A stretch of DNA of 48,743 nt from Clostridia bacterium (GTDB taxonomy: Bacteria; Bacillota; Clostridia; Christensenellales; UBA1242), in assembly GCA_045645925.1 (NCBI GenBank), contig JAZRJQ010000010.1:1-48743 (forward strand), read 5' to 3'. The translations under genes were made by a program, and so were the position numbers. This document shows, piece by piece, positions 2,904 through 45,056 of this stretch (its first letter is position 1; each line of letters begins with the position of its first letter). The notes under the pieces are model-generated. The model saw only the letters and a list, made by a program, of their open reading frames with translations. It was not told the DNA's origin and did no database searches.

Positions 2904-4092
2904 TTTTAACACCACCTTTTCGGCTTTTATACTTATGCTTTGTCACCGTTCCACAAATTTCGGTTAATTCATATTTTATTAATTTGTGCCTAAAAACATC
3001 GGTTAATTTTGTTTTGTTTTTTTGTGTTTTTATTGCCGACACAACCACTACCACCAAAAGCACTGCCTGAAAACTCAAATCGGCTATAATAAACGGTAAA
3101 CTTGTTATAATGTTTATTGCCCTAATCAAATTTAAATAAAGCAAGGCAACACTAATTAAAACACTTATAACAATAACAAACATTGTTACAATCTTGTTTT
3201 GAATATTAAAACATTGTCCAACAAGTTTTGCTGAACTAAGCATAACAATTCCAACTTGCAAAAACAAAATTATTAACCAAAACAATATATTTAACCAGTT
3301 AATGCTTCCGTTCAAAGTGTTAATGCTTGTGTACAACAAAAGTTCGCTTAGTGCCAACGAATGATTTAAACCAGTGTCACCAAATACTGCTGAAAAAACA
3401 ATATAAAAACCAACAACAAAAATATCTGTTACCAACAACCATGTTAACACTGTTTTTGTGGTTTTGGGTTTAAATTCAACCTTGCCCATAAGTAAAAATA
3501 AAATTAAATAATCACCAAATGTGAATGAACACCTAAACACCCCCACAAAAACACCAGCAACACCATTTTCAAAAATTGGCAACAAATTTGAAAAATCAGC
3601 TTGCGTTGCTGGAATTACAACAGAAACAACCAAAGCCAATGCTATAAGCCAAATAAAAAGTTGGATTGTTCTGCCAAAAGTTCTAAAATCTTTTAATACC
3701 ATATAACCAATTAAAACTAACAACGGAATAACATACACAAACCAATTAATATCGTCAAACAAAGTTTCATTAAAGTAATTATGAATTTCTTTTATAATTA
3801 AAATTCCTTTACAAAACAAATGCACTGCTAACAAAAAAATTAAAATTTTTGCAACAACTTTACCAAACGCCCTAACAATTAGTTGTTGCAATGTTACATT
3901 TGGATTGTTTTTCATAACACCCAAAACAATTGCACAAAACAAAAAATCAATAGCCAAACCTATTGCAACCGAAATATAAACATCACTAAACGCATATTTG
4001 GCAAACAAAGCAGGAAAAACCAAAAAGTTTAAGCCAATTGTTGTAATACACAAAATTAGTGCACACTGCATTCCACTTATCTTTTTTGTCAT
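2896..4092 (-). CDS. spore germination protein, GerAB/APC-permease-like B subunit
   Basis: 398 aa, about 10 TM polytopic protein between the A and C subunits. Its start abuts the stop of the A subunit. Confidence 0.85.
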   Translation of the reverse strand: MTKKISGMQCALILCITTIGLNFLVFPALFAKYAFSDVYISVAIGLAIDFLFCAIVLGVMKNNPNVTLQQLIVRAFGKVVAKILIFLLAVHLFCKGILIIKEIHNYFNETLFDDINWFVYVIPLLVLIGYMVLKDFRTFGRTIQLFIWLIALALVVSVVIPATQADFSNLLPIFENGVAGVFVGVFRCSFTFGDYLILFLLMGKVEFKPKTTKTVLTWLLVTDIFVVGFYIVFSAVFGDTGLNHSLALSELLLYTSINTLNGSINWLNILFWLIILFLQVGIVMLSSAKLVGQCFNIQNKIVTMFVIVISVLISVALLYLNLIRAINIITSLPFIIADLSFQAVLLVVVVVSAIKTQKNKTKLTDVFRHKLIKYELTEICGTVTKHKYKSRKGGVKNA

Positions 4093-5544
4093 TTACCCCA
4101 TTCTCCTTCTGTTTTTGTTAGTAATTGATTTTGGTCTGGTTTTCATGCTTGTTAGTGGCTTTTTAAAAACTGCATCTTTTAAATCGTTTTGAACAATTGG
4201 CGAAAATGGACTTAAATATGGTGATTTGTAATTATCAAAATCATTTAAATATAAAATCAAAAACAAACTAAAAATCACAATTCCATAAAACCCTAACGCA
4301 CTTCCAATAATTGTATAAATCACTCTCAAAATACTTAACTGATTTGCTTGGTCAGGAATTGTGTAAAGCGTTATACCACTTAACGCAATAATCATTACAG
4401 CCGGTGGCGAAATTATTCCAGCCTTAACTGCTGTGTCACCTAAAATCAGTGCACCCACAACCGACAACGCAATTCCTAAATACTCTGGCATTCTTAAACT
4501 TGCTTCATACAAAATTTCAAACAGCACAAGCACAAACAAAATTTCAACCACTGGGCTTAGTGGCAATCCTTGTGTTGAATTTATTATTGTTACCAAAAAA
4601 GAAAGTGGCACTGCTTTGTAATGATACATTTGCATTGCAATATAAAGACCAGGCAACAACATTGTTATAAAACAACTTGCAATTCTAAGCATTCTAACAA
4701 ACGTTGCGTGCGATGCATCTTTATAGTAATCATCGGCAGCCTGAAAATCTTCCATAAGCACAAACGGCAAAGTTATTGCAAGTGGCGAACCATCAACCAA
4801 AATAATAATTCTGCCTTCAAGCATTTTTGCACAAGCAATATCTGGTTTTTCAGTGTTGCCAAGTTGCTTAAACATGCTTGCCTTGTGTGGCTTTAAAAAC
4901 TCTGCAACATAGTAGCTATCAATAATTCCATCAATGTTAATACTTTTAAGTTTGTTAATAATTTTTTTAACCAACGTTTTATCGGCAACATTTTCTAAAT
5001 ACATAACACACACATCTGTGCTTGTTATTTTTCCAACTTTAAGCATATGTGTTTTAAGTTGGTTGGTTGCAAAAATTTTACGAATTACTGCAATGTTTGT
5101 TTTTATGTTTTCATTAAACCCTTCACGTGGACCTTTTAAAACTGCACTTGTTGGTGGTTCGGTTAAACTACGTTCCTTGGGGTTGTCAAGTTCCAAAACA
5201 AACACTTTGTTGGTATTGTTAAAAATTAACACAACTTTTCCTTTTGTTATTTCATTTATAACATTAGAAAAATCAGTTTCTGTTTTCACTTCCGGAAACG
5301 AAATCACATTATTCACAACATAGTCAACCTGATTTATTTTTGGCATATTTTGTGCTGTTTGCATGGGTTTTATGACATAATCTGCCAATTGTACAACATT
5401 AACCATACCTTTCAAATACATCACAGCAACATCGTAATTACCAGTTTTAAACTGCTTAACAATAACATCGTTGCTACAAAAAAAAGATTTTTTTATGTTT
5501 AAAATATTAACTTTTAAAGACTTAGAAATTTGCATAACCAACAA
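4093..5544 (-). CDS. spore germination protein, GerAA family A subunit
   Basis: 483 aa. Conserved GerA signatures (TEPPTSAVLKGPREGFNENIKTNIAVIRK; C-terminal TM bundle). The start could instead be the ATG at 5535. Confidence 0.9.
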   Translation of the reverse strand: MLVMQISKSLKVNILNIKKSFFCSNDVIVKQFKTGNYDVAVMYLKGMVNVVQLADYVIKPMQTAQNMPKINQVDYVVNNVISFPEVKTETDFSNVINEITKGKVVLIFNNTNKVFVLELDNPKERSLTEPPTSAVLKGPREGFNENIKTNIAVIRKIFATNQLKTHMLKVGKITSTDVCVMYLENVADKTLVKKIINKLKSINIDGIIDSYYVAEFLKPHKASMFKQLGNTEKPDIACAKMLEGRIIILVDGSPLAITLPFVLMEDFQAADDYYKDASHATFVRMLRIASCFITMLLPGLYIAMQMYHYKAVPLSFLVTIINSTQGLPLSPVVEILFVLVLFEILYEASLRMPEYLGIALSVVGALILGDTAVKAGIISPPAVMIIALSGITLYTIPDQANQLSILRVIYTIIGSALGFYGIVIFSLFLILYLNDFDNYKSPYLSPFSPIVQNDLKDAVFKKPLTSMKTRPKSITNKNRRRMG

Positions 5545-9288: not shown

Positions 9289-10068
9289 TTAAATGTTACT
9301 ATCGCTACCTGCAAATGCTTCGTTAAACACACTTTCAACATTACGAATTGTTGTTACCATATATTCACCAGTTGTATCATCAGCACTTACTGGGATTTTT
9401 GCTTGGATTGCTTGAACTGAGAACCAGAAAGTTATTTTTGAACCCGAGAATTTGTTATCAACTTCGGTTGGGAAAATAAGGTTTTGACCTTTTGAGTAAG
9501 GATTTAAAAAGTCAATAATTGGACCAGTTTCACAATCAATATGGTCAACCAATGTGTTTTGAATATCGTCGTTATCCAAACTTTTACCACCAGTGTAGTA
9601 CCACCAACCAGTTGTTGTGTCTAGCACCCAAAGTGGCAAACTATATTTTTCGGTGTCAAACTTTAAGGCTTTATCAATAATTTGATTGTTCAAACTGTTA
9701 ATAAGTTCAGCAACTTCGGTGGTTGTTGCACCACTACTTTCAACCGAAATATTAAGTTTAACACGCAACAACGCAGGTGTTTTACTTTCCTGGAATTTAA
9801 CAGAAGCATAGGTTTTAATCTGCATTCCAGGCATTAATCTAACATTGTTTATGGTAAAAGGCAATTCTGCCCCATCTGGCAAAATTGTTCCATCAGTTCT
9901 TTCAGTAATGTTTACAACAACTGGGTCACCCAAAGTAACAACTGTTTCTTCACGATCAGTTGATGCAAACCACGCAAAAGTTGCGCCTGTAACCAACGAA
10001 ATGGCTAAAAGCACACTTAAAACTATTATTAAGCTTGTGTATTTGTTTATTTCCTTAGAAAATTTCAT
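9289..10068 (-). CDS. TasA/camelysin-like secreted protein with SipW-cognate signal peptide
   Basis: 259 aa. N-terminal hydrophobic segment ending in LVTGATFAWFASTD, then a beta-rich body with WWYY and a terminal VQAIQAK strand shared with its paralogs. GGGAGA SD. Confidence 0.7.
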   Translation of the reverse strand: MKFSKEINKYTSLIIVLSVLLAISLVTGATFAWFASTDREETVVTLGDPVVVNITERTDGTILPDGAELPFTINNVRLMPGMQIKTYASVKFQESKTPALLRVKLNISVESSGATTTEVAELINSLNNQIIDKALKFDTEKYSLPLWVLDTTTGWWYYTGGKSLDNDDIQNTLVDHIDCETGPIIDFLNPYSKGQNLIFPTEVDNKFSGSKITFWFSVQAIQAKIPVSADDTTGEYMVTTIRNVESVFNEAFAGSDSNI

Positions 10069-10253
10069 GTTTCTCCCATCAAACTTTTACATAAGCATAA
10101 TTACACATCTTACTCTCTAATAGTATATTAAATTTTTAGGTTTTAGTAAAATAAAATTCCCTAAATATATTTTATTATTATATATATATTTATTTAATTT
10201 TTTGTAACTTTTGCTTTTTATATTTCAACCCATCAGTTTTATAACATTTATAT

Positions 10254-10979
10254 TTAACTATTTAGCCAATTTTGTGGGGCGTCAACCCAAAGTAAACCTG
10301 CAAAACCACCATCATAACTTAAACTTTCAACAGTAAAAGTTAAATAACTCATGCCAGAATTGTTTTCAACGTTTAAAACACCACTTTTAAGTTCAACTTG
10401 TTCACACAAAAGAATATTGCTGGTTTCATCAACAATGTTGCAATAATACAAATATCCATCAGTGCCAAGTTTCCAGTTACCATGCTCAGCTAATTCAATT
10501 TCAACACTCTCACCATTTGCTTTTGTTAATGTTGCTTTACCCCTTACAACTTGCCTTGTTTTTAAGTTTGAAACATCCAATTTCACATTTTGAGTGTAAG
10601 TAACACCAGTTAATGTATTGCTTAAAACTTTAACACTAACATTATTGCTTTTATTTTCCAAAACTTTAAGCGAAACATTGCTTAACATCATCTGCTTGTT
10701 TTCGTTAAAAAATTGTTTATTGTTTTGCCACAAACCAATAAACGCACCAACAATAAAAACCAATAACAATAATACTACAAAAAACATCGCAATCAAGCCA
10801 TAATTCCACTTTTTTAAGGTGTAGATTTTATCTTTTAAAACTAGCACATTTTCATTGGTTTTAATGCTTAAATTGTTGTTTGAATTTTGATTTTTTTTGC
10901 TTGAATTTAATTCATTTTTTTGCGTTAACGCCAAGCCAAAATCCTCCTTTAATTTAATAAAAACACAAGTTTTATTCAC
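10254..10979 (-). CDS. membrane-tethered TasA-like paralog (no canonical SipW motif); 5' end uncertain
   Basis: 241 aa from a GTG with no SD. TM MFFVVLLLLVFIVGAFIGLW. Ectodomain has GYLYYCNIV and C-terminal LWVDAPQNW motifs matching 7842..9275. An internal ATG (Met65) is an alternative start. Confidence 0.5.
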   Translation of the reverse strand: MNKTCVFIKLKEDFGLALTQKNELNSSKKNQNSNNNLSIKTNENVLVLKDKIYTLKKWNYGLIAMFFVVLLLLVFIVGAFIGLWQNNKQFFNENKQMMLSNVSLKVLENKSNNVSVKVLSNTLTGVTYTQNVKLDVSNLKTRQVVRGKATLTKANGESVEIELAEHGNWKLGTDGYLYYCNIVDETSNILLCEQVELKSGVLNVENNSGMSYLTFTVESLSYDGGFAGLLWVDAPQNWLNS

Positions 10980-11040
10980 TTATAATTTTTAACATTTTGG
11001 CGTTTTATTATTCAAAATTTAACAACATTATTGCAACAAA

Positions 11041-11068
11041 AAAACCTGCAATTTTATTTGCAGGTTTT
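11041..11068 (-). terminator. rho-independent terminator after 11072..11767
   Basis: Stem ACCTGCAA / TTGCAGGT followed by T7 on the minus strand. Confidence 0.6.
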
Positions 11069-11071
11069 AAA

Positions 11072-11767
11072 TTAATCAGCAAGTTTTCCCCATGTTGGGT
11101 TACTGAAATTTTGTAATGGATTTTCAACGTTCATAATTTGGATTGCACTAACAATATAATCAATGTTAATATCTTTGTTTGCAAACACGTTTGTTAGTTT
11201 TGTGCTAATTCTAATTTGACCATTAATAAAGGTGTGAACATCTCCATCATATGCTGTTTTTGCTCTGATTTGGCCATCAATATTTTCACTAAACACCCAC
11301 CATTTTCCGCCATCTTCTTCACCAAAATCAACTTCAACCCAGTCAGTAGAAATTGGAGTTGGGGTTGTGCTACCATTATCAAATTCAACCAAGCCTTCTG
11401 TAACAATGTCACCACCAAGGTCGGTTAATGCGTTTGATGTTACTTTTAGTTTTGCCCTTACAAAAGCTGGTGACGAAGGTTTGCCTTCCATACCCATAAC
11501 AAAACCAAGTTTTAAGTTTATTTTTGTTCCTGGCAAAATGTCAACTTCATCAAGTGGCAAGGTTACAGTTCCTTGTGCCACACTCATATCGTCAGTAATA
11601 TAAATTTCAACAGGGTCAGAAAGTGTTACCCCTAACATTTCGGAAATAATACGAGTGTACCAAGCAAATGTTACACCTGCAACCAACGTTAGAAGCAATA
11701 ATGCACTTAAAACAATTATTATAATTCGTTGCGAATTAACTAAGTTGTCGCTTTTTTCTTCAAACAT
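11072..11767 (-). CDS. TasA/camelysin-like secreted protein with SipW-cognate signal peptide
   Basis: 231 aa. LVAGVTFAWYTRI motif after the hydrophobic core, KWWVF and VSAIQIM paralog motifs, AAGGAGA SD. Confidence 0.7.
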   Translation of the reverse strand: MFEEKSDNLVNSQRIIIIVLSALLLLTLVAGVTFAWYTRIISEMLGVTLSDPVEIYITDDMSVAQGTVTLPLDEVDILPGTKINLKLGFVMGMEGKPSSPAFVRAKLKVTSNALTDLGGDIVTEGLVEFDNGSTTPTPISTDWVEVDFGEEDGGKWWVFSENIDGQIRAKTAYDGDVHTFINGQIRISTKLTNVFANKDINIDYIVSAIQIMNVENPLQNFSNPTWGKLAD

Positions 11768-11839
11768 ACTATCTCCTTTTCTAAATTTTACAATAAATTT
11801 TAATAAAACACTAACATTTTTAACAAAAATACAATTTGT

Positions 11840-12544
11840 TTATGAACCAGCAGGATTACATGTTGGGCATGGTGTGCTAGCACCAACAACCTTTGTTCCA
11901 CATGTTGCACAGTCCCTAACATCATAATCAGCAATTCGTTGAACCCACTCATCTGGTGCATAATCTGCCCAATCTTCGTGTGTTTTATAAGCTTCGTAAT
12001 AACGTTGAATTGCATATACTGTTAAAGTGAATTTAACTGGTTGATTTTTATCAATATTATCAATACCATTAGTTACAACAATACCTGTGTTGAATGTTGC
12101 TGTAACATCTGGACTAATATATCCAACATAATAATAACAATCATCAGCAGAACTATAAATCCAACTTTGTTTACCATTAGCTTCGTGTTCAGCTGTTATG
12201 TGTAAGAGTGGTTCAACAACATGATAGTTGTCAACTTGATAATCTGTTGTAAGCTTTACCTTTATATAAGCTTCATCAGTATTTTCAGCACATTTTATGG
12301 TTGTAGGCATATCGTTATACATTTTATTTGGTTCCAAAATATCTCCCGGAACAGCAAGTGTTGTTTGAACATCTAAGCTAATATCTCCAACAATAAAAAC
12401 TTTTGTTCCTACTTCACTTTCACCAAACCAAGCCGAAGTTATAAAGTAGAAAATTAAAAAACACAAAACAGCAATAATAAGCAAAGATGTCATTTTGTTG
12501 AAACGACTTCCAAGATTGTTATATTCAAAAACATTTTCTTCCAT
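11840..12544 (-). CDS. TasA-like secreted protein with C-terminal CxxC-x10-CxxC tail
   Basis: 234 aa. Degenerate signal motif FITSAWFGESE. CYYYVGY and VYAIQRY paralog motifs. Ends in DCATCGTKVVGASTPCPTCNPAGS. Strong AAGGAGG SD. Confidence 0.6.
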   Translation of the reverse strand: MEENVFEYNNLGSRFNKMTSLLIIAVLCFLIFYFITSAWFGESEVGTKVFIVGDISLDVQTTLAVPGDILEPNKMYNDMPTTIKCAENTDEAYIKVKLTTDYQVDNYHVVEPLLHITAEHEANGKQSWIYSSADDCYYYVGYISPDVTATFNTGIVVTNGIDNIDKNQPVKFTLTVYAIQRYYEAYKTHEDWADYAPDEWVQRIADYDVRDCATCGTKVVGASTPCPTCNPAGS

Positions 12545-12600
12545 AATCTTTGCCTCCTTTTGTTATTTTGTGTTTCACATTTATAAAATAATTTTAAATA

Positions 12601-12790
12601 TTTAAAATTTGTTATCTTGATTTAAGACAGCTTTTCTAATAAACCCTTATAAAAAATGTGATGTGCGCAAATTTGTTTTGCGTATTTAAAATTTGTTATT
12701 TCAAATTCAAGTAATTATTCTAATAAATCCTTATTTTTAAAATGTGATGTGCGCAGTTTTAAATTTGCGAGTTTAAAATTTTAAATCGAT
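12601..12790. repeat. tandem direct repeat, two ~85-bp units plus a partial third (module A of an intergenic repeat family)
   Basis: TTTAAAATTTGTTAT occurs at 12601 and 12685. AATGTGATGTGCGCA occurs at 12655 and 12741. CTAATAAA(C/T)CCTTAT is also duplicated. Confidence 0.75.
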
Positions 12791-12815
12791 GTACAAAATT
12801 TATTTATTAGCAATA

Positions 12816-12860
12816 GCAAATTTTCAACTGTTTGAACGAAGTGAGTTTTGAAAAATTTGT
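12816..12860. repeat. conserved hairpin module (core TGTTTGAACGAAGTGAGTT), copy 1 of 3
   Basis: Arms GCAAATTTTCAA / TTGAAAAATTTGT flank a 19-20 nt conserved loop. The same core recurs at 41118 and 41291. Confidence 0.7.
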
Positions 12861-12928
12861 TATTGCGAGAAAATTCAAATAATTTAAAAAGTTATTTAAA
12901 ATTTTTTAAAGCAAATTTAAAACAAGCA

Positions 12929-13660
12929 CTACTTCCATGCAGTCCATTGTTGCAAGAAAGCAGCAGTTAAAACTCCAAATGGTTTATCAACGGCATCAAC
13001 CGGATTTTCAGGTGTGTCAACTTGATAAGCATTACCGGAATATGCCACAATTTCTGCCCTAACAAACACAAACACTTTTGAACCTTGCATACCCTCAGTT
13101 AAACCAGTCAAGCCGGTTGCAACGTTTTGTGTTGCACCACCAGCAAGTTGTGAATTGTAAAACGAATTAAAATAGTTTTGGTCATTAATTAATTCGTGGT
13201 CGTACAAATTAACCCAACCAGTTTGTTCAACTTTTAATGCACTAGTTGAAAGTATACTATAAGCGCCTTGCAGTTCATTTTCTTCGTGATCATACAAAAT
13301 TTCGTCGTTTGTTGCAACAACCAAACATCTAACAATTCCTGGAATATTGCCGGTGTTTTTAATTTTTATATCAATAGGAATTGTTGTGTTTAATGTGTTT
13401 GGCATTGTTGTTTGTAAAATTGTGCCAACCAAATAGGTTCCATCTTCTTGCTTGGTTCCATTAATTACTGTGTCACCACTATAAATTTCAATGCCAACTT
13501 CACCTATTGTTCCACCATCATCTTCTTTTGTAAAAGAATCAGTAAACCAAGCAAAAGTTACACCTAAAACAATCATAAGTGCAAACACAATAGAAACAAT
13601 CACAAAAAGTATGTTTTCAGATATTAAATTTTTTTGTTTGTATATCTTCATAAAGTACAC
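12929..13660 (-). CDS. TasA/camelysin-like secreted protein with SipW-cognate signal peptide
   Basis: 243 aa. VLGVTFAWFTDSFTKED motif and a beta-rich body. The start is ambiguous between GTG 13660 and ATG 13651. Confidence 0.7.
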   Translation of the reverse strand: MYFMKIYKQKNLISENILFVIVSIVFALMIVLGVTFAWFTDSFTKEDDGGTIGEVGIEIYSGDTVINGTKQEDGTYLVGTILQTTMPNTLNTTIPIDIKIKNTGNIPGIVRCLVVATNDEILYDHEENELQGAYSILSTSALKVEQTGWVNLYDHELINDQNYFNSFYNSQLAGGATQNVATGLTGLTEGMQGSKVFVFVRAEIVAYSGNAYQVDTPENPVDAVDKPFGVLTAAFLQQWTAWK

Positions 13661-13730
13661 ACTATCCCTTATTGTAATTTTACGTTTTTTTAAATTTTTT
13701 GTAAAGCAAATACATTAGTTGATAACGTTA

Positions 13731-13770
13731 AAAAATAGACATATAGTTTTTTACTATATGTCTATTTTAT
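13731..13770 (-). terminator. rho-independent terminator after sipW
   Basis: Perfect 13-bp stem ATAGACATATAGT / ACTATATGTCTAT followed by a T-run on the minus strand. Confidence 0.65.
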
Positions 13771-13786
13771 TATTTGCAATTTTGCT

Positions 13787-14269
13787 TTAACTATATACCA
13801 CAATAAACATTGCTAAAACAATGCAAACAGTAATAATTATGATATTGTCTTTAATTAAATCTAACAACACTCCAAGATATGGAAAATGACAGATAACCAC
13901 ACCAACAAAGTTTTTGTCGGTAACAGTTTCACGTGTTCCCAAATTTTCTTTTGCATCACCTTGGGTTTTTAATGTTACCTTGTTTCCATAAACTTGTTTT
14001 TCAACAACTCTGTGAGTTACATTATTTTCGCCAGCTTTAAATGTTACAATGTCACCAACTTCAACATCTTGAATTGGAATATGTTTAACCATAACAACAG
14101 TATCAACCGGCAATGTTGGAGTCATGGAACCCGTTAAAATATTTAAAAATTTATATCCCATAGCAAAAGAAGCAACCAATGTTATTAGTGCTGCCAAGCA
14201 TATATTTTTAATAATTATTAAAACAGATTTTACAATTATATTTTCTCTTTTGTAAATTGATTTTCCCAT
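13787..14269 (-). CDS. sipW: signal peptidase I, SipW/Sec11 (S26B, Ser-His) type
   Basis: 160 aa. N-terminal TM, catalytic-Ser box LTGSMTPTL, GDIVTF box, His box VTHRVVE, QGDAKEN box and a C-terminal TM. This architecture matches B. subtilis SipW. Confidence 0.85.
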   Translation of the reverse strand: MGKSIYKRENIIVKSVLIIIKNICLAALITLVASFAMGYKFLNILTGSMTPTLPVDTVVMVKHIPIQDVEVGDIVTFKAGENNVTHRVVEKQVYGNKVTLKTQGDAKENLGTRETVTDKNFVGVVICHFPYLGVLLDLIKDNIIIITVCIVLAMFIVVYS

Positions 14270-14350
14270 TAAGCCCTACCAAATTTATTTGTTGAGTTTA
14301 TGCCTTTATAAAGCCAATTTTTTAATTAATCACATAAATCAAATTCAACC

Positions 14351-14380
14351 TTGAAAACGTGGAATTAACCACGTTTTCAA
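14351..14380 (-). terminator. 12-bp hairpin between the giant gene and sipW (weak terminator or processing site)
   Basis: TTGAAAACGTGG / CCACGTTTTCAA perfect stem. There is no clean T-run, so read-through into sipW is likely. Confidence 0.35.
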
Positions 14381-14446
14381 AAGCCAAATTTGTAACAATA
14401 TTAGTATATACGTTTAAGCGTTTTTTTACAATCAAAATTTAGTTGT

Positions 14447-17400
14447 TTACGCTTTCCAAGTATAACCTGTCAACTGCCATTCAAACACTGGGTAACCATT
14501 GTTAATTGATGTATTATCGTTTTTGTAAATGCTACCCAAGCTTGTTGTAAGCGATGTTACAAGACTTGTTTTGTTTGCACTGTTAGATACACCAGTTAAA
14601 GCTTTGGTTGTATCGCCATGTGCACCATAAGCAATATTGATTGTACCATAAACATAGTAGTAATCGCTATTATAATAATTTGAAACGGTTGCCCTTGAAT
14701 CGTCAACTGCAACAATTGTACCAAATTTATTATCAGTGCCACCACCAGGTTTTGCTGTTCCACCAGAAACTGAAACAGTTCCTAGAACAACATAACAATT
14801 ATCAACTGAATTTGAGTTTGTTGAAGAGTTGTCACAAACTATACCTGCACCATAATGGGTTGCAGAACCATTTGCTAAACCCGAAACATACAACTTATCA
14901 ATAATTGCATAACAAGTTGAAACAGTTCCATCACCCAAGTTATCGGTATCCATGTTATTAACAACAATACCAGCAGCTTTTGCTTGAATTGAACTTTCAA
15001 ATGCTTGTGCCGTAATATTTCCTGTGCTGTAACAATAAGAAATTTGACTATAGTTAAATATTGCAATACCACCAACAAATACGCCATTTAATTCGCCTGT
15101 GTTGCCACAATTTTGAACAACTGCATTTTTGTTGTTTACGCTTACAATACCAGAAACATAGGATTTCATATTGCTAATTTCGGTATATTTCTTAATCAAC
15201 ATATTGTTTACTGAATTAATAATTGTTCCATTATTTTCAACTGCAATACCTGCAATACGTTGATCGTCTAATGGATAGTATAACAATTCGCCATCTTTTC
15301 CACTTAGAGTATATGGTTTTGTTTGAACATTTTCAATTCTACCATTGTTAACAATTGTTATACCACCCATTCTAACAGCTCTATATGAACCAGAGCCTGA
15401 GTTAATACCCACTTTTAAGTTTTTAACAACACCATTAGCGCCAATTTGCCTAATTAAAGCAACTTGGTTTAACTGACGGAATGCAAAACGAACATTGTTT
15501 AGTGAATATCCATCACCATCAATTGTTCCGTTAAACACATTACCACTCTTTCTTCCAATTACAAAGTCTGTAACATTTTGGCTTAAATCGGTTTCGCTTA
15601 ATGTGATGTGTTTACCGAACTTAAAGTAGCTATCTAAGTAGTAATCAATGTTAATAACATGTTTAGATTCTTCTAACATATAAGGATCTTCAGCTGTTCC
15701 ACTACCAGAAGCGAATATCCAACATTCACCTGTTTCAGATTCGCTATAAGCAGAAGTAATTTCTAGGTCGTTAATATCATCTTTAATATAACTTAACACA
15801 CTAACATCATATGAACCCATTGTTTGAATTTTAAATCTGTTAGTACCTGGTTTTAAGTTTGCAATAACAGGAGTTGTGCTAGTGTTATAGTAAATTCTAA
15901 CCCTTGTCCATGTGTTATTTGATGCATTTGTCCAACCAATTTCACCTGTTGAAGAAATTACATACAAATTAGATGGAGTTAAAGGAACTTCAATTGCAAC
16001 TTCGTTAGAGTTGTTACTCATTGAATATTTACCTTCAGCCGAATCATACAATCTATCTTCACCGTAAACTTGACAATAAACTGAGAATTCTTGACCAAAT
16101 GGGTTTGGTTGATCAGGAGCCAATGCATCTAAATCTGCAACAGCCTGAACATTAAACATAATGTAATTTGCATCCATTGAATAATAAGAATTTTCATCAG
16201 GAGTTGAGTAAGAATCAAATGCACTGAATGTGTGTTCTTTTATAACTTCACCATCTTTATTATACTTTCTTACAGTAAATTGATAATATCTTGCATTTGT
16301 TACTCTTGCAACAGCCACATTGTTAATAGGAGCATCGTTTTTAGTACCAATACTTAAATCGGCAACCGGAGTTGGCAATTTAAAGAATGTCATACTTGCA
16401 GGTGCAGAACTAAACCAGCAATAGTTACCAAGGTCAGCAAAGATATCTTCTTCATCTTCGCCTTCGCCACCTTCTTCACCTTCGTCAGGTTCTGTTGGTC
16501 CACCTTCCACAGGTGGTGCCTCTCCAGGACCTTCACCACCCTCACCTTCTTCGCCTTCACCTTCGGTTTCATCTTCAAAGTCGGTTTTTGTTACATATCC
16601 GTTTGAACCAAGATATGAAACTTCAATTTTATAATATCCGCTTGGAACATCTTCGTCTGTTCCAACCAATCTATAACCTTCTGGGCTGTTTACTGCTGCT
16701 GTAATATCATATTCTTCATCAATAATAACAGTACCAGACTGATCTGTTTCGTTTGCCAAACGTTGAAGTTTTACTGTAACACCTGTTGCAATAGCATAGT
16801 TAAGGTCGGTGTTATTCCATTTTATTACACCATCTTCAACACGAAGAAGTGGTCTTTCTAAACGTTTTGCCAAAATTTCAATACAATATTCACCGTTTAG
16901 ATATTCTTCTGATTCGCTGCCAGGAATTGCCCTAATTCTAATATTAAACACTTCATTTCCAAATGCTTCAGGAGCTTTGAATTCCAAATACCTAAAGTTA
17001 TCTTCAGAAACTAATGAATAACCATATTCTGTTTCACCTTCTTGAAGTTCATCATCTAATCTGTAAACTTCATATTCATAACCACCTTCAACTTCACGCC
17101 ATGAAAGTTTTCCGTTTTTCATAACAACATCTTGCGGTGGAAGTAGTCGTTTATAGAAGTGTGATTGATCTGGATCACCACTTACAAAGTAGTTTTGAGC
17201 ACCAACAACTTCGTTAGAATCAATTGTTCCTAATGGAGAAACTTTGATTGCATATTCTAATCTGTTTCCTTCTGCATCTGTTGCAGGATATAGTAACGAA
17301 TCTAAGTCATAGTAGCAATATCTTTCCTCATAAGTTACTGTTTCAGTATCTAATGATTCAAATTCGTATTCTCCTTCTTTTCTACACAAAATTTCAACAC

Positions 17401-20400
17401 TATACATTGTTGCTATTTCTGTAACACCAGCGCCATCATCATAAGAAACTCTTTCCCATCTAAACTTACCACCAACAAGCGACATTGTTGTGATTTTACC
17501 AAACTTATGAACTTTAAACGTTGCTTCGCCAGTAACAGTATTAACTGGGGCAGAAGTTGACGAAATTTTGGTTATACCATTACCAATTGCACGGCTTGTT
17601 ACGTAATAACTACCTTGTGGGAAATATCCATTTTCAATAAATGAATACATAAAGTAACCATTTTCAACTTTTACAAAGCTATAATGTGGATTTTCTTCAT
17701 CAGCACCAGCTGGTGTAAGAGTTATTAATTGTGCAACCTTTTTAGGGTCTCCTGTTGGGTTTTCAGCACTTTCATTAAATTGATATGTTGCGCCAAGTGC
17801 TGTACTCCAAATTCTAATTTCTTGGCTAACAGCTGTTTGAATTGTGCTAACAGCCACATTACCATTTGTCACCATAATGCTAGGTTTTGCCAACATTTCA
17901 ACTTCGCAACTATGGTCGTAATTACTAGTGAAGTAAACACCACTTGTCGAAGATCCAGAATCTGCTGTTCCTAACGCTTTAACTTTTAATGTATAAACAT
18001 AGCCAGTTTCAATTCCAATATCCACAACTGGAACTTTAAAGTAGGCATTAACACCACTTGTTTCAGTCATACTTTGTTCATATTTTGATCTATTTGAAGA
18101 ATTGATATAGAATTCCAAATCTTCTTTTTGTGCATCCATACAATCTGCAATAATTAAATAATCTGTAGTATAACCTGTTTCCATAAATACTTTTGCAAAG
18201 TATAAGTGGTCAGCATAAACCATTGTTACTTTTCCTTCAACCGGATAAACACCACCAACAGGGGTTTGTGGAGGTGGTAATTTGTAACCAGTAATTGCGG
18301 ACGAATAGTTTCCATTTAAAACAAGAAATACTTCCTGATTAAAATCTCCTCCCATTCCGGCACCACCACCCTCAGGAGGCATTTCTCCACCACCTTCCAT
18401 AGGATCTTCTAAAATTTGCGTGGTATATCTCCCGTTATATAGTGACATAATCTCTCCACCACCTTCAGGAGGCATTCCACCATCACCCATGTCTCCACTA
18501 CCAGATGATGAACGAGATCCCCCCATAAATCTAACTGCCAATGTATATGGATTATTTAATGTAGAGAAGTTGAAGTCATAATAATAAATAAGTTCTTTTT
18601 TAACTTCATCTAATTCAATTTTTAGAACAGTTTGGTTTTGATAAACTTTATTATTTATTCTAACTTCCAAATTCCTAAACAATTCCAAATTTTGCATCAT
18701 TGAATTTTCAGCCGCAGGATCACCCTTAGCTGCCAACAACAAACTAGAATATTTTTCCGAAATAAATTCGGCACCATTATTTAAATCTTTCAAATAAGCA
18801 TTAGTCAAAGGAATAGACCAACTCAAATAGCCGTTTCTAACTTTAAATTTACCACCTAGGGAATTTGCCTTTGGCGCTTTATATAATGTTTTAGTAATTG
18901 GTTCTGCAATACTTGAACTTAAACAATTTGAGCCATCTCCAACTGTGTAAATTTTTACTGTATAATAGCCACTAGGATATTTTGTTTCATCATCAAAATC
19001 TATACTTGCGTGCGTTGTTGTAAAACTTTCACAACTTGCATCATCTTCAAGTTCATCAGCTTTTCCTTCATAAATTTCAATCTTATAAGCAGTTCTTCCA
19101 TCAACTTCATCCCAAGAAGCAACACCATTAACTGTATAAATTGAAGATGGGCTTGCTAAAACTTTTGTTTCAAAACTTCCATTTCTACCACTTGTTAGGT
19201 ATGCCATCTCAGAAATTGTTGCAGTTGTACTACCTTCTGAAACAATATAGAATGTATATTCTGCAGCAGGAATATTGGTTGGCATCATAACACCACTTTC
19301 ACCAGCGTTATTTCCACTTGCAAAATACCCATCACGTTCAGCATCATATTTGTCGCTAAAAATTTTATTCATTTCGCCACTTTCGGAACGAATGATGTAT
19401 CCTGTTGCATTGTCAACTTTATCCCAATAAATATAACCTTCGCTAAGATAAGGAGCAAAAACCCCTTCTAATTTTTGAACCAACAACTCACCTGACAACT
19501 CGCTATCACCATAAATAATTGTTGTATCATCACCAGGTTCTTTAATTGCTTTAATTCGAATTCTATGGTTTAAGGTATCCATTATGATTTCATCATTAAT
19601 TTTTCTTGCATCCATTTGATCTGTGAACGAATCATAAATCACAGTTTCAAATTGAGGTTCATCTGTTCCTTCTTCGCCAGCGCCTTCATCTACTTGTTCG
19701 GGCGCATTAGGATCTACTGGATTTTCTGGATCTTCTGGAACTGGATCTTCTGGAACTATTTCAACTTGCCTTGAATAAGTTGCAAGTTCACCATCAATAT
19801 AAATTTGATATTGAACACCTTCTGCACCTTCATGTGTCCAATTTAAGTATCCATTTGTACTATAAAACTCTGTAACAGGATTTAATAATTCAAACTTTTG
19901 ACAATAACTTTCTCTTGGACTTAAAATGTAGTCTCCGGAATTTAATTTACCAACAACACCAAACCAAATTTTATATAATCCAGGCGTAAAATCTTCATCG
20001 TTAGGATATGTTACATAATACTCTGTTGCAGCTTTATCTAATTCGGTTGTATATAAATATTTGTCAGCACCTTCGGCAGGCTCAACTGCTTCATATGCAA
20101 CTTTAATTTTTGATGCCCTGTTGCCACCTTCATTATTTGCATTGTTCAAAATAAGTTTATTTTCTGCTCTAACATATTGATTTAAACTTAGTGCCGACAA
20201 AATTGTAACACTTATTGGATTTTCACAAACATCTCCGTTAATAAATCCATACGCTTTTTCACCAGAATCTTTTGTTCCTTTTGCAGAAATATTAAACTTA
20301 AATGTTCCAGAAACAGTTTTTCCATACTCAAACGCAATTGCTGTTGTAACAGCATTGTCGGTTTTTAAGTTGATTGCTCTGGTAATAACTTCTTCGCCAA

Positions 20401-37526: not shown

Positions 37527-38060
37527 TTAAAACTGCTGAACGTTTGCTTTAAAATGTTTGGTTAAGTTAAAAATTTTGCTATGTTTAGTTTTATTTTTTA
37601 CGTCTAACAAAAATTGAATAATGTCGTCACGATTAATCAGTATCACATTTTGAATTTGTGCAATTGTTTTTGCGTTTTGTGTGTACTTCCAGTTGGTTAT
37701 AACGCATGCGAAATCTGCTTTGTAATACTTTAATGCCGAAGTAACTTCTTGTACAGAGTGGTTGCCAACACCATGTTTGTAATATAGTTTTGCCTGCACC
37801 ACAACTTTAAAACGTTTTGAAATCACCAAGTCAGCACCATAATCGCCTGAGCCACCAGTTTTTTGAACATTGTAACCAGCATATTCAAAAATCAATGCAC
37901 AAATATCTTCAAATTCTTCGCCAGTTAACGCATCAATTTTTGAAATTGTAACGCCTTTAAAAAACTTACCAATATAAATTTTTTTAAATTGGTTTACAAC
38001 AAGTTTTATTAACCACCACACAAGTGTTATTGGAAAGAATATAATTTTTAAAAAAGCCAT
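37527..38060 (-). CDS. membrane-anchored Mrr-cat (PD-(D/E)xK) restriction-endonuclease-domain protein
   Basis: 177 aa. N-terminal TM (IIFFPITLVWWLIKLVV), then LTGEEFEDICALIFEYAGYNV...GDYGADLV...VVVQAKLY...CVITNWKYTQNA, matching the Mrr_cat pattern. Confidence 0.65.
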   Translation of the reverse strand: MAFLKIIFFPITLVWWLIKLVVNQFKKIYIGKFFKGVTISKIDALTGEEFEDICALIFEYAGYNVQKTGGSGDYGADLVISKRFKVVVQAKLYYKHGVGNHSVQEVTSALKYYKADFACVITNWKYTQNAKTIAQIQNVILINRDDIIQFLLDVKNKTKHSKIFNLTKHFKANVQQF

Positions 38061-40243: not shown

Positions 40244-40873
40244 TTAGTTAAAAACTTTTGAATAAGTTATAATCCCCTTAACAATTTCGGTTAAAGCATT
40301 AATCAACCCTTTTAGTCGTTCGGTGTTTTCAAAAATTTCACTGTTAATTTCAATTTGTAAAGCAAACACTTTGTAGGTTTTAGAAAAGAAACCTGCAATG
40401 GTTTTTTCTGATGCTTTAAATGGGTAATCTTCGGTTGTTTCAAACCCATGCTTTTTAAAAATATGTTCAATGCGTGAAAACAAAATTGTGTTACCAACCA
40501 AGTTAAACCTGTTGTTTGTGCCAAGATTTATTTGTTGGCTACGCAAATTGTTTAAACAATGAATATCTAAAACAAACTTCACTTGGTCGTTTTCGATTAA
40601 GGACGCAATTTTGTTGCGATAGTTTGAATTAAAATCAAAATTCGCATCGTCATTTAAATCCGATGTTTTTGCAATCAAACTAGAACCGGTTAGTTTGCTA
40701 ACCACATTTATTAAATTGTAAGTTTGAGTTTCAGCAAATTTGGTTTTGCCGTTTCTGGTTTGTGTTACAGCATGTGGCGCAGATAGTAGAACCATGTTTC
40801 CACTTTTAAAGGTGTAGCCCAAAGGTTCGTCAACTGGCAGAACAACACTGTTAAAACTTTCAATAATATCCAT
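40244..40873 (-). CDS. hypothetical protein, possibly N-formylglutamate amidohydrolase-like metal hydrolase fold
   Basis: 209 aa. Spaced His/Glu/Asp/His pattern (LLSAPHAV...FAETQT...VLDIHCL...LQIEIN) reminiscent of FGase-type hydrolases. No visible SD. Confidence 0.35.
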   Translation of the reverse strand: MDIIESFNSVVLPVDEPLGYTFKSGNMVLLSAPHAVTQTRNGKTKFAETQTYNLINVVSKLTGSSLIAKTSDLNDDANFDFNSNYRNKIASLIENDQVKFVLDIHCLNNLRSQQINLGTNNRFNLVGNTILFSRIEHIFKKHGFETTEDYPFKASEKTIAGFFSKTYKVFALQIEINSEIFENTERLKGLINALTEIVKGIITYSKVFN

Positions 40874-41005
40874 ATAACATATATTAAAAAATTAAATATA
40901 AATTGTAAAGTAAAACAAAATTGACCTTTTAAAAATTTTTTAATATATAACATTTTGCAACAATAAATTTTAAAACAAAACCATAAGAATATCTTTACAT
41001 TTCGA

Positions 41006-41335
41006 TAGCATTAGCAAACCCACAATCTAAACTAAAACACAAAATTTTATATTTTGCGTGTTTAAAATTTACCGTAAATAAAAGAAATTATTTTGTTAGT
41101 TTGTTTTAAATTTGTAATGTTTGAACGTAGTGAGTTTTGCAAAATTAAAACTGTTTTCAATCTTGCAATCAAAATTGGTAGCGTTAGCGAACCCGTAATC
41201 TAATGTGGGGTGCGAAGTTTTGTGTTTTGCGTGTTTAAAAATTTGCTGTATATTAGCCAAATTTAAATTATGCACTTAAAAATTTTGCAATGTTTGAACA
41301 TAGTGAGTTTTGTAAAAAATTTTTTATTGCAAGAA
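41006..41335. repeat. tandem direct repeat, two ~172-173-bp units (module A-like half plus hairpin module), same family as 12601-12860
   Basis: TAGC(A/G)TTAGC(A/G)AACCC at 41006 and 41179. TTTTGCGTGTTTAAAA at 41052 and 41225. TGTTTGAAC(G/A)TAGTGAGTTTTG at 41118 and 41290. Confidence 0.8.
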
Positions 41336-41373
41336 AAAAGCAGTTGGAAAAACAACCAACTGCAAATTTTTTT
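41334..41373. terminator. bidirectional hairpin terminator (ends the DAC-like gene on the minus strand; also followed by a T-run on the plus strand)
   Basis: Stem GCAGTTGG / CCAACTGC, with A6 on the 5' side and AAATTTTTTT on the 3' side. Confidence 0.6.
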
Positions 41374-41395
41374 AAAGCAAAACACAAAACGAGCA

Positions 41396-42436
41396 CTATT
41401 TTTTTACGGCCTTATAGAACATTTCACCTTCATGGCTTTGGAAATAAACCCCAATAATACGTTTACGACGAGAGTTTATAACAGTATATGCTGCACGTTT
41501 TCTGGCACCACCCACAACGTTCATGTTGCGTGTGTTACTTTCAACAAACACGTTGTATGCCCTAATTCTGCCGGTGTTATCAACAATGGTAATACCATCA
41601 TAATCAAGCATATCCATAAACAAATCACAGAATCCAGTTAATTTTGATTCGTTATAAGTTTTTGAACGCATAAACAATTTTGAAAAACTTATTGGTTCTT
41701 TAAGCCAAACACCATCTTGGAAGAAACCATTATCAACATAATCTTTATCAACAATAACGCAAAGTGCACCGTGAACGTTTTTAAACACAGAATCAAAAAC
41801 GTTTTCGTACATGGTTTTTATTTCGTTAAGTTTTTTGTTTGTTGTTCTAAGTTTACTAAAACTAGCATCAACAAACTCTCTAATTTCAGTTTTCCAATCG
41901 GTAACAATTGCATCGTCAAGGGTGTTAACAACATTAAGTTGTTCGCCTTTAAGGCTTGTTAGTGTTGTTGTGTAACTGTTAACCGGTTCAACATGCACAA
42001 CAGAAATTTTATCGGAACGTTCTTTTAACACAGGGTTAGAGAAAATCAAACTTTTCAAGTTTTCTTCCTTAATACTGTTTAACGCACGACAAATACCATA
42101 AGTTATGCTGTCTTCCTTAATGTTAATAAAAATTAACCAACCATGCTTACAAAACGGAGCAAGTTTTTTAATGTTATAGTTAAACTTGATTTCAGAAATA
42201 TCGTCAGTAAACATTGCAATACGATAGCAATCCGGAACATTTTTTGCAACAAAATCTATGTTGTTTGTAAACAATAGATTTGGATGAAGTTTTGTTCCTT
42301 CTTCTTCGTAATTTGCCAAACTTGAAAAAAAGTTTAAAAACTGCATGTGTAGTTTTTTAGGGAATGTTTCAAATTCTCTTTCAATAAACTCTGTAACTGC
42401 CACCTTGGCTGTTGAATATGTAACTGTATCTTGCAT
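41396..42436 (-). CDS. two-domain protein with a C-terminal divergent DAC (DisA_N, diadenylate-cyclase-like) domain
   Basis: 346 aa. C-terminal about 125 aa read VHGALCVIV...DYDGITIVDNTGRIRAYNVFV...VVGGARKRAAYTVINS...IGVYFQSHEGEMF, parallel to the CdaA/DisA pattern HGALIVI...DGAVII...GTRHRAA...VSEETG. AGGGGTGG SD. Confidence 0.55.
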   Translation of the reverse strand: MQDTVTYSTAKVAVTEFIEREFETFPKKLHMQFLNFFSSLANYEEEGTKLHPNLLFTNNIDFVAKNVPDCYRIAMFTDDISEIKFNYNIKKLAPFCKHGWLIFINIKEDSITYGICRALNSIKEENLKSLIFSNPVLKERSDKISVVHVEPVNSYTTTLTSLKGEQLNVVNTLDDAIVTDWKTEIREFVDASFSKLRTTNKKLNEIKTMYENVFDSVFKNVHGALCVIVDKDYVDNGFFQDGVWLKEPISFSKLFMRSKTYNESKLTGFCDLFMDMLDYDGITIVDNTGRIRAYNVFVESNTRNMNVVGGARKRAAYTVINSRRKRIIGVYFQSHEGEMFYKAVKK

Positions 42437-43943: not shown

Positions 43944-45056
43944 TTATAGTTTTTCACCGCAGTCAATACAGAACTTACCTGTTCCTGTGTTTTCAGCACC
44001 ACATTTTTTACAAATGCGTTTTGTGTTTTGGCTTTTTCCACATTCTGGGCAGAATTTTGCACGTGCACTAATTTCAGCATGACAATTTACACATTGTTTT
44101 TTGCCAGCAACTGCAAATTTATGACCACATTCTGGGCAGAATTTTGCTTTTTCAGCCAAGCTTGCACCACATGTTGGACATTCTTTTTTAGGGCTTGCTT
44201 TAAATGATTCAGTAATAACTGTGCTCATTGCCATACCAGAACCTAAGCCAACACCCATACCAGCCATTCCGCCACCATTAGGATTGCTTGCGCCTTCACG
44301 CATTGCATTTGCTGCTTGATATTTAACGTATGTATCCATATCACCCATAACACCCATTGAAGAACGTGTGTCAATTGCTTTTTCAACTTCTTCTGGGAAA
44401 GATATGTTTTCAATAACCAAGTTTGTTAGTTCTAAACCAAGTTTTGCAAAGTGTTCATTAACCATACCTTGTGCAACTTTGTTAAATTCCAACAAATTGC
44501 ATGTTAGGTCAAGAGCTGAAATTTTTGATTCAGCAATTGTATCAGAAATTGATGCAACTAACATACTTTTTAGGTAACTTGTTATATCTTCTGTTTTAAA
44601 TGTTGAATTTGTTCCAAACAATTCTTTTAAGAACACAACTGGGTCAACAACTCTAAAAGCATATGTTCCATAACTTTTAATTCTTATTGTTCCAAAATCC
44701 TTATCACGCATTGTAATTGGATTGCTTGTTCCCCATTTAATGTTTGTGAATTGTTTTGTGTTCACATAATAAACATCTGAATAGAATGGTGAATTAAAAC
44801 CATGTGCCCAGTTTAATAATTTTGTTAAATAAGGCAAGTTTGATGTTGTTAAGGTGTGCAAGCCTGGTTCAAAAACATCGGCAAGTTTTCCTTTGTTAAC
44901 AAACACTGCTTTTTGGCTTTCTCTAACAGTAAGTTTGCTACCCATCATAATTTGGCGACCATCCATAGGATATTTGTAAACTATGGTGTTTTTACTGTCA
45001 TCTGTCCATTCAATATTTTTTAATAATTGGCTTTTTACAAAACTAAATAATCCCAC
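43944..45056 (-). CDS. SPFH/Band-7 family protein with C-terminal tandem zinc ribbons (COG4260, YdjI-like)
   Basis: 370 aa from a GTG start with an AAGGGGGA SD. N-terminus MGLFSFVKSQLLKNIEWTD and an SPFH body. Gly/Met-rich linker, then four CPxCG/CxxCG knuckles. Confidence 0.75.
   Translation of the reverse strand: MGLFSFVKSQLLKNIEWTDDSKNTIVYKYPMDGRQIMMGSKLTVRESQKAVFVNKGKLADVFEPGLHTLTTSNLPYLTKLLNWAHGFNSPFYSDVYYVNTKQFTNIKWGTSNPITMRDKDFGTIRIKSYGTYAFRVVDPVVFLKELFGTNSTFKTEDITSYLKSMLVASISDTIAESKISALDLTCNLLEFNKVAQGMVNEHFAKLGLELTNLVIENISFPEEVEKAIDTRSSMGVMGDMDTYVKYQAANAMREGASNPNGGGMAGMGVGLGSGMAMSTVITESFKASPKKECPTCGASLAEKAKFCPECGHKFAVAGKKQCVNCHAEISARAKFCPECGKSQNTKRICKKCGAENTGTGKFCIDCGEKL

Follow-up and report, generated by a model that had tools for sequence, protein, structure and literature searches.

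The DNA analysed here, which we call the window, is the 48,743-nucleotide (nt) contig JAZRJQ010000010.1 of a Clostridia bacterium (assembly GCA_045645925.1), and our subject is a hairpin-forming element that lies at two places in it, in each case beside the end of a minus-strand gene. Locus 1 adjoins the gene at 12929-13660, and locus 2 lies between the genes at 40244-40873 and 41396-42436. Together they hold three copies of one terminal sequence, all on the plus strand. A preliminary description of this DNA had proposed for locus 2 a possible non-coding RNA (ncRNA) of about 400 nt, bounded by a promoter and a terminator of its own, and had named a REP-like recognition structure as the alternative. 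We report that the window element is a somewhat degenerate local representative of an apparently undescribed hairpin repeat that crosses bacterial phyla, and that the REP-like alternative fits the evidence better than the 400-nt ncRNA.

The core shared by the copies is TGTTTGAAC-RW-AGTGAGTT. Searched as the pattern TGTTTGAACRWAGTGAGTT, it matches the window three times, against 0.01 matches expected by chance from shuffles of the window. The matches start at 12829 (not 12828, as first given), 41118 and 41291, which bears out the three copies of the preliminary description. The whole assembly (1.08 Mb in 162 contigs, 87% complete) contains these three copies and no others. Their NN positions read GA, GT and AT in copies 1, 2 and 3, while the rest of the tip is exact. 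The closing pairs, read from the sequence, are as had been proposed: A-T, A-T, C-G, T-A in copy 1; A-T, A-T, T.G, G-C in copy 2; and A-T, A-T, C-G, G.T in copy 3. The features of the two loci are as follows:

12829..12847, plus strand: invariant 19-nt tip of copy 1, TGTTTGAACGAAGTGAGTT (exact pattern match)
41118..41136, plus strand: invariant 19-nt tip of copy 2 (exact pattern match)
41291..41309, plus strand: invariant 19-nt tip of copy 3 (exact pattern match)
12810..12866, plus strand: apical hairpin of copy 1, about 20 base pairs (bp) (minimum free energy (MFE) fold; inverted repeat I2, 23 nt, 83% complementary)
41103..41151, plus strand: apical hairpin of copy 2, inside unit A
41271..41331, plus strand: apical hairpin of copy 3, inside unit B
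12749..12929, plus strand: complete closed long hairpin of locus 1 (fold, inverted repeat I12, arm alignment)
41209..41397, plus strand: complete closed long hairpin of locus 2, unit B (fold, covariance model R1, arm alignment)
41000..41172, plus strand: unit A of locus 2, a partial tandem duplicate (repeats D2, D3 and D5; inverted repeat I18; R1)
12599..12781, plus strand: tandem R2 units of locus 1, 84-87 nt each (repeat families D1-D5 at 84-nt spacing; alignments A1 and A4)

Folded alone, apical hairpins 1, 2 and 3 reach -16.9, -9.1 and -9.5 kcal/mol, with z-scores of -2.3 (-2.29), 0.0 and +0.4 relative to shuffled sequence; in DNA as AT-rich as this, and with three copies only, such short hairpins are by themselves weak evidence. 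The real units are longer than the preliminary description saw, namely two closed hairpins, each about 185-190 nt long, plus a partial tandem duplicate. At locus 1 the closing helix GTGC/GCAC is joined by a perfect 13-bp outer helix (12756-12768 with 12911-12923; I12, 100% complementary), and the 3' end abuts the TAG stop (12929-12931) of the minus-strand gene 12929-13660. Unit B of locus 2 is built in the same manner: GGTGC/GCACT forms its closing helix, 41217-41230 pairs perfectly with 41377-41390 as a 14-bp outer helix, and its 3' end abuts the TAG stop (41396-41398) of the minus-strand gene 41396-42436. Locus 1 (181 nt) folds at -43.6 kcal/mol (z = -4.20) and unit B (189 nt) at -58.8 kcal/mol (z = -5.51), with none of 200 shuffles as stable in either case. 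Their minus strands reach -37.2 and -46.5 kcal/mol, which is 6-12 kcal/mol weaker than the plus strand. The arm alignment reveals compensated differences between the outer helices of the two loci, GTTTTAAATTTGC/GCAAATTTAAAAC at locus 1 against GTTTTGTGTTTTGC/GCAAAACACAAAAC at locus 2. At both, the stretch adjoining the stop of the upstream minus-strand gene reappears, inverted and complemented, about 150 nt deeper in the intergenic region.

The tandem units complete this picture. Locus 2 has a period of 173 nt (repeats D2, D3 and D5 recur at 173-174-nt spacing), and only its gene-proximal unit is complete. Unit A combines the 25-mer TAGCATTAGCAAACCCACAATCTAA with a degenerate 5' arm and with apical hairpin copy 2, and is without a 3' arm of its own. 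The 25-mer TAGCRTTAGCRAACCCRYAATCTAA, for which no occurrence is expected by chance, is found at 41006-41030 and 41179-41203, ahead of each 173-nt unit; it sits outside the long hairpin and contains TAGCGT/TAGCGA. At locus 1 each R2 unit begins with the 12-nt direct repeat TATTTAAAATTT (at 12599, 12683, (12771) and 12893) and closes with an inverted copy of the gene-proximal flank. The R2 units were not found at any other family locus or relative locus examined.

Independent recognition of the window copies comes from a covariance model, R1, made from other genomes only and containing no window sequence. Run over the window with filters off, it recovers precisely the three sites, with 52.4 bits for copy 1 (12812-12863; E = 1.8e-10), 36.0 bits for copy 2 (E = 2.7e-6) and 29.6 bits for copy 3 (E = 1.2e-4). 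All other window sequence scores 19 bits or less, the level of generic hairpins, and family members from elsewhere score 31.6-72 bits. The match to R1, the fold z-scores of the full units and the compensated outer-helix differences thus indicate that the window hairpins are more than chance.

The family was collected by scanning one genome per prokaryotic species with the query TGTTTGAACNNAGTGAGTT, for whose 17 fixed bases our own arithmetic predicts about 70 chance matches in 596 Gb. This yielded at least 120 loci in at least ten phyla, as judged from record titles: Bacillota, Fusobacteriota, Bacteroidota, Campylobacterota, Pseudomonadota, Patescibacteria, Cyanobacteriota (Gastranaerophilales), Desulfobacterota, Elusimicrobiota and Armatimonadota. 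Among the matches listed, nearly all present the 19-mer between complementary arms that differ from genome to genome, and a handful that lie inside genes and lack arms are chance matches; the hairpin span among these listed matches has a median of about 136 nt and an upper quartile of 192 nt. The tip itself, a 19-20-mer of the form (C)TGTTTGAAC-GNA-GTGAGTT whose loop reads AACTC / TCAAACAG on the opposite strand, stays letter-perfect while the arms vary.

The arms obey a strict geometry. In members taken without selection, one fixed register has 73% of its positions paired and the neighbouring registers have 52-56%; in the former, position -1, mostly C, is unpaired, and pairing ends sharply after 10 bp. 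Beneath this 10-bp helix many members carry an internal loop, GTTAAG / TAG, which is absent from the window copies. In a gapless alignment of 56 members, preselected for at least 8 of 10 pairs, 94.9% of cells are paired against 60.9% in shuffles, and 220 cells are doubly changed against 61. The 103 distinct sequences harvested with R1, an alignment fitted to that model, contain 391 doubly changed cells, whereas their shuffles contain 108. Covariation reaches into the tip as well: GAAC-GNA-GTGA alternates with GAGC-GNA-GCGA, such that one pair is A-U in 93 cases and G-C in 8 without a single break, and GNA is unconstrained at its middle position. Therefore the tip is a folded unit rather than a plain loop, a C-GNA-G mini-hairpin with a 2-bp helix, tandem G.A pairs and a U/T-rich bulge, set on a helix of exactly 10 bp. 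At the foot of that helix the 103-sequence alignment keeps a purine-U pair (A-U in 46, G-U in 26).

The family is also strand-specific. Taking as plus the strand that carries the tip as written, the plus strand folds better in 111 of 120 hairpins; summed over these hairpins, its MFE is -5543 kcal/mol against -4691 for the minus strand, and plus-strand folds contain 574 G.U pairs against 229. The preliminary description had argued from wobble pairs in three copies for a plus-strand-specific structure, and these counts make that argument valid for the family as a whole. The stem covariation it had claimed is upheld by the double changes across the family and by the compensated outer helices in the window. 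The window copies share the exact tip, the helix of about 10 bp with its R1 score, and the long closed hairpin favouring the tip strand, except that unit A (41000-41172) is incomplete as a long closed hairpin.

Some members carry further structure. At loci from many phyla (among them L049:5440-5600, L072, L077, L004, L097 and L010) a T-run comes after the long hairpin, together with a second hairpin whose conserved arms read ..YTTTTG-GTTACTTTTCTTTG / CAAAGAAAAGTAAC.. and whose loop often complements the bases immediately 5' of the T-run (CTTGAT/ATCAAG in Bacteroidota; elsewhere GGTGAGC/GCTCACC, TAGCC/GGCTA and TTGAGC/GCTCAA). This arrangement might form an H-type pseudoknot or a triplex. The same 11-nt core (GAGC-GNA-GCGA or GAAC-GAA-GTGA) also caps short hairpins on other short stems, TCATCCT..AGGATC and CATTCT..AGAAT, at L045:672 (plus strand) and L121:607 (minus strand); these are SRM-like in look (SRM being a hairpin repeat described below). 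This suggests a wider superfamily with a common C-GNA-G apex and tandem G.A pairs.

No described family was found to which the element could be assigned. Rfam 15 gave no hits at the gathering threshold over the window and 10-12 stretches of family loci, and at E-values up to 10 the same sequences gave chance matches only, mostly to miRNA and snoRNA models; hence no known Rfam family accounts for the element, an outcome that the preliminary description had named as one of its checks. Searching the literature by literal sequence for the tip, its GC variant, the arms of the second hairpin and SRM-like words returned no relevant paper, and searching it by concept brought up a single candidate, MRSC-65-2, which is another motif (see below). 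Circularly permuted group II introns were considered and are unrelated to the hairpin family.

In its distribution the element behaves as a repeat. Copies within one genome are alike over 165-290 nt, and between genera only the tip is common. Fusobacterium vincentii has at least 18 places in one record, tandem arrays occur, and further copies lie near by in either orientation. At several loci (L029, at 4083-4142 on the minus strand with 4248-4299 on the plus strand; also L090, L020, L050 and L014) a second, more divergent copy in opposite orientation stands 150-300 nt off, and such pairs resemble BIME-like inverted pairs.

Close relatives lack the element at both window loci. Relatives with 87% and 68% protein identity at locus 1 keep the gene order, with a spacer of 90-120 nt and no element. 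At locus 2 (84-85% identity) the gene ends with TAA and its own terminator and is followed by a different gene. Across about 37 kb of these relatives' loci no element scored. The extra DNA of locus 1, about 295 nt, is bracketed by TATTTAAAATTT, which also opens each internal 84-nt unit; element ends vary between genomes. The 3' arm of locus 1 is native DNA present in the relatives too, and the same arm pair is found at locus 2. The extra DNA may have come from an insertion that copied the flank in inverted form, or the relatives may have undergone a deletion. At locus 2 the relatives place a 511-amino-acid gene 116 nt after the 346-amino-acid gene (L126:4042-5693, to be compared with window 40244-41395), where the window instead has the repeats and an unrelated 209-amino-acid gene with a weak match to N-formylglutamate amidohydrolase (FGase). 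The breakpoint coincides exactly with the stop codon (relatives TAA, window TAG).

To the genes around it the element shows little attachment. No neighbour family recurs: each Pfam family accounts for at most 2 of 117 nearest neighbours, all of them housekeeping, and an all-against-all BLAST of flanking open reading frames (ORFs) agrees. The 25 families listed for these neighbours include no transposase and no RAYT (Y1 HUH). The settings comprise 22 convergent, 37 tandem (19 + 18, by element orientation) and 5 divergent gene pairs, so that gene 3' ends are favoured. The main coding strand is the element's strand at 50 loci and the opposite one at 48, and the element is co-oriented with the upstream gene in 51 cases against 32, leaving about 40% of scored copies antisense to it. 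All three window copies are antisense to the flanking genes, as first described. Within-clade alignments of family members from other genomes contain no conserved upstream promoter. A replication-strand bias was rejected, GC skew on the element strand being positive at 49 loci and negative at 49.

Phage and viral collections are devoid of the hairpin, with no copy in 50,697 phage records or 2.9 million viral contigs. A match in Vibrio filamentous phage (21 of 22 bases, in two near-identical records) is without complementary arms and the other phage matches lie inside annotated genes, three IMG/VR matches comprise the tip and no stem, and a Bacillus cereus plasmid match is a chance match.

Within the window there is no tRNA or tmRNA. 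Near locus 2 lie genes for an Mrr-type restriction endonuclease (37527-38060, minus strand) and for an SPFH/Band-7 protein with C-terminal double zinc ribbons (43944-45056, minus strand). The minus-strand row at 9289-24451, whose gene order is kept in the relatives L128, L129 and L131, begins with a 3334-amino-acid ORF (14447-24451) and an S26/SipW-like signal peptidase (13787-14269) and continues with genes of 231-259 amino acids; the three of these that were scanned have no Pfam match, and one homologue is named 'predicted ribosomally synthesized peptide with SipW-like signal peptide' by JGI.

On this evidence we favour, with modest confidence, the reading that the window hairpins are REP- or SRM-like, that is, members of a widespread, multicopy, non-coding repeat that has no associated gene and acts as a folded single strand. 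On this reading they are neither a gene-specific regulator of their neighbours nor a single 400-nt small RNA. By analogy, the best available model for how the conserved hairpin might be read is the NTS/SRM-Ssn system. NTS and SRM are hairpin repeats present in many copies in many phyla; SRMs are hairpins of about 30 nt in which the palindrome sequence and flanking tags are conserved, and in NTS the palindrome sequence matters for recognition. Small GIY-YIG nucleases, termed Ssn, bind and cut them only as single-stranded DNA (ssDNA) and in one orientation only, not as double-stranded DNA or RNA (Chenal et al., Nat Commun 2025, PMC11893778). For the present family, too, we lean towards ssDNA over RNA as the likelier acting strand, because orientation is independent of transcription, no promoter is conserved, the GNA mini-hairpin is typical of stable DNA hairpins, and Ssn provides a precedent. 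A GNA triloop with a closing C-G pair marks stable mini-hairpins of DNA, as in d(GCGAAGC), rather than those of RNA. The constant tip would then be the recognition site of a conserved trans-acting protein, which might spread or maintain the repeat in the way modelled by NTS/SRM with Ssn and REP with RAYT.

Several observations weigh against this repeat reading. No partner protein was found, and neither a transposase nor a GIY-YIG-like ORF (the latter by motif scans) is near any of about 120 loci. The window's own genome holds just three copies on one contig, which amounts to minimal proliferation, and apical hairpins 2 and 3 fold no more stably than shuffled sequence. There is no clean target-site duplication, and TATTTAAAATTT fits an insertion and a deletion in the relatives equally. 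The G.T/G.U wobbles and the conserved purine-U pair suit ssDNA and RNA alike, and the T-run with a possible pseudoknot 3' of the hairpin in other phyla looks RNA-like. Part of the arm compensation could stem from palindrome-templated correction rather than selection.

A more specific form of the favoured repeat reading, which we put forward tentatively as a possibility, is that the tip is the docking site of a single-strand-specific protein shared across phyla, in an undescribed repeat-enzyme system on the scale of REP-RAYT or SRM-Ssn. Candidates for such a protein would be a site-specific ssDNA nuclease or transposase unrelated to those of Ssn/SRM and RAYT/REP, or an RNA-binding protein that recognises a fold like the kink-turn (K-turn). 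If this is true, the arms can arise from flanking DNA by inverted duplication, as locus 1 hints.

The rival that survives best, though we think it rather unlikely, holds that the element works as a structured plus-strand RNA, either a cis element where transcription units end (stabilising the 3' end, terminating or insulating) or a small RNA with a tip bound by a conserved RNA-binding protein, for instance one recognising K-turn-like folds. The strand-specific fold, the purine-U pair kept at the foot of the 10-bp helix and the K-turn-like layout of the tip (a C-G pair, a bulge and tandem G.A pairs) are all what such an RNA would show, and so are the preference for gene 3' ends and the modest co-orientation with the upstream gene. 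A T-run follows the hairpin in 25 of 102 members, often with the second hairpin and its possible pseudoknot, but both are missing from the window copies. Moreover, the orientation bias is weak, with the large antisense fraction and the even split relative to the main coding strand noted above, the window copies are antisense without exception, no promoter is conserved ahead of the unit, Rfam offers no match, and the C-G-closed GNA triloop is typical of stable DNA mini-hairpins.

That the family simply belongs to the published NTS/SRM class, recognised by an Ssn (cd10448 GIY-YIG) ssDNA nuclease, appears improbable. The two have a common logic, both being cross-phylum, multicopy, orientation-specific hairpins with an apex of the C-GNA-G type (the NTS sequence is CGTCATTCCCGCGMAVGCGGGAATCYRG), and the short hairpins with the GAGC-GNA-GCGA core at two family loci come close to SRMs. 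However, the SRM pattern HGTCWYN(0-2)YYVSBRHN(0-5)WNVSBRGN(0-2)RNCYNB has no match in the window, the family consensus or 824 kb of family loci, while the same search finds the NTS sequence used as a control; the GTC tag 5' of the palindrome is missing; the family conserves the tip and varies the stem, whereas NTS recognition depends on the palindrome sequence; and motif scans detect no GIY-YIG-like ORF in the window or near the roughly 120 loci. Because of the nil pattern match and the lack of a nearby GIY-YIG-like ORF we do not call the element an SRM, even though it may work like one.

The ncRNA of the preliminary description, a single plus-strand transcript of about 400 nt (40950-41373) antisense to the flanking genes, requires a sigma-70 promoter and a terminator of its own, and two features bear on these:

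40881..40949, both strands overlapping: promoter region of the minus-strand gene 40244-40873 (consensus promoter scan)
41340..41363, both strands: GC-rich hairpin GCAGTTGG-N8-CCAACTGC, a side branch within the locus-2 element (terminator scan)

The plus-strand TTGACC-17-TATATA does exist at 40921-40949, as had been stated, but its -10 hexamer has no T at position 6 and the consensus scan does not report it. The region has 2 promoter-like sites against 5.2 expected from shuffles, and the only nearby site that the scan lists is the minus-strand TTTACA-17-TAATAT, running from 40909 to 40881 directly upstream of gene 40244-40873. The proposed terminator hairpin is real and, followed by AAATTTTTTT on the plus strand, passes the terminator scan. 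It is nonetheless bidirectional and serves the minus-strand gene 41396-42436 equally well or better, with TTTTTT directly after it on that strand, 33 nt past the stop of this gene. Only this separate hairpin has the make-up of an intrinsic terminator, on both strands; the three conserved hairpins of the window are AT-rich and followed by A-rich sequence. As the promoter fails the scan, the terminator is bidirectional, and locus 1 carries the same element with a counterpart of neither, a single 400-nt RNA is unsupported. The stretch resolves instead into two tandem 173-nt units, one of them complete, of an insertion-polymorphic member of a cross-phylum repeat, and we accordingly regard the ncRNA as very improbable.

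Least credible is that the hairpins are functionless palindromes or chance AT-rich complementarity kept by palindrome-templated repair, or a small ORF. In its favour are the strong AT-richness of the genome, the stability of apical hairpins 2 and 3, which does not exceed that of shuffles, and a 28-codon ORF (MFERSEFCK...) running from an ATG at 41117, one base ahead of the copy 2 tip, to a TAA at 41201-41203. Yet a 19-nt tip identical in at least ten phyla while its arms vary freely cannot be neutral, and symmetric templated repair is not expected to give a strand asymmetry. The ORF was rejected because the other copies lack it (copy 1 reads CTG, with a TGA 7 codons on) and the family stems ignore the reading frame.

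A 19-base tip that stays letter-perfect on otherwise dissimilar hairpins, and that recurs without an accompanying gene in more than 100 species from at least ten phyla, implies a conserved and as yet unnamed reader. For annotation, recognising the family avoids mistaking its members for gene-specific riboswitches, small RNAs or small ORFs, and in this reduced genome it marks two rearrangement-prone spots.

The REP/BIME/REPIN elements associated with RAYT (TnpA-REP, a Y1 HUH protein) resemble the family in being extragenic, multicopy, near gene 3' ends and in either orientation, in having hairpins thought to act as single strands, and in sometimes forming tandem or inverted clusters. REP elements, however, conserve the stem and a 5' GTAG or CGTC tag, are species-specific, and have variable loops in REPINs, whereas in the present family stems vary and the loop is fixed across phyla, so that it falls outside the REP/REPIN definition. 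The 'mobile/repeat sequence candidate' MRSC-65-2 is a single long stem with strong covariation, often in dozens of copies per genome, that occurs in diverse phyla in inconsistent orientation, and its authors could not say whether it acts as RNA or DNA (Narunsky et al., NAR 2024, PMC11109978). It is defined by a repeated UYCCGG that is absent from the family, and is thus a different motif.

MITEs (short for miniature inverted-repeat transposable elements) of bacteria that fold as long hairpins, such as Correia, ERIC/IRU, RUP and bcr1, are non-coding, intergenic and insertion-polymorphic; their terminal inverted repeats are conserved and they are lineage-restricted. The present family, in contrast, keeps its centre, spans phyla and has no clear target-site duplication. 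Single-strand origins of the ssoA type, found on rolling-circle plasmids, form long, imperfect hairpins that are orientation-specific and conserve between hosts only the terminal-loop sequence (CS-6) and one stem site. Their sequences differ from ours, and the family is chromosomal, multicopy, unlinked to Rep genes and absent as a hairpin from phage and viral collections. Finally, SRMs measure about 30 nt and have a fixed palindrome, whereas the family hairpins measure 100-200 nt and combine free arms with a fixed tip. The Ssn/SRM precedent indicates that repeats of this kind can lead to a new enzyme class with practical uses; since the family lies outside the SRM definition, it may point to another such partner.

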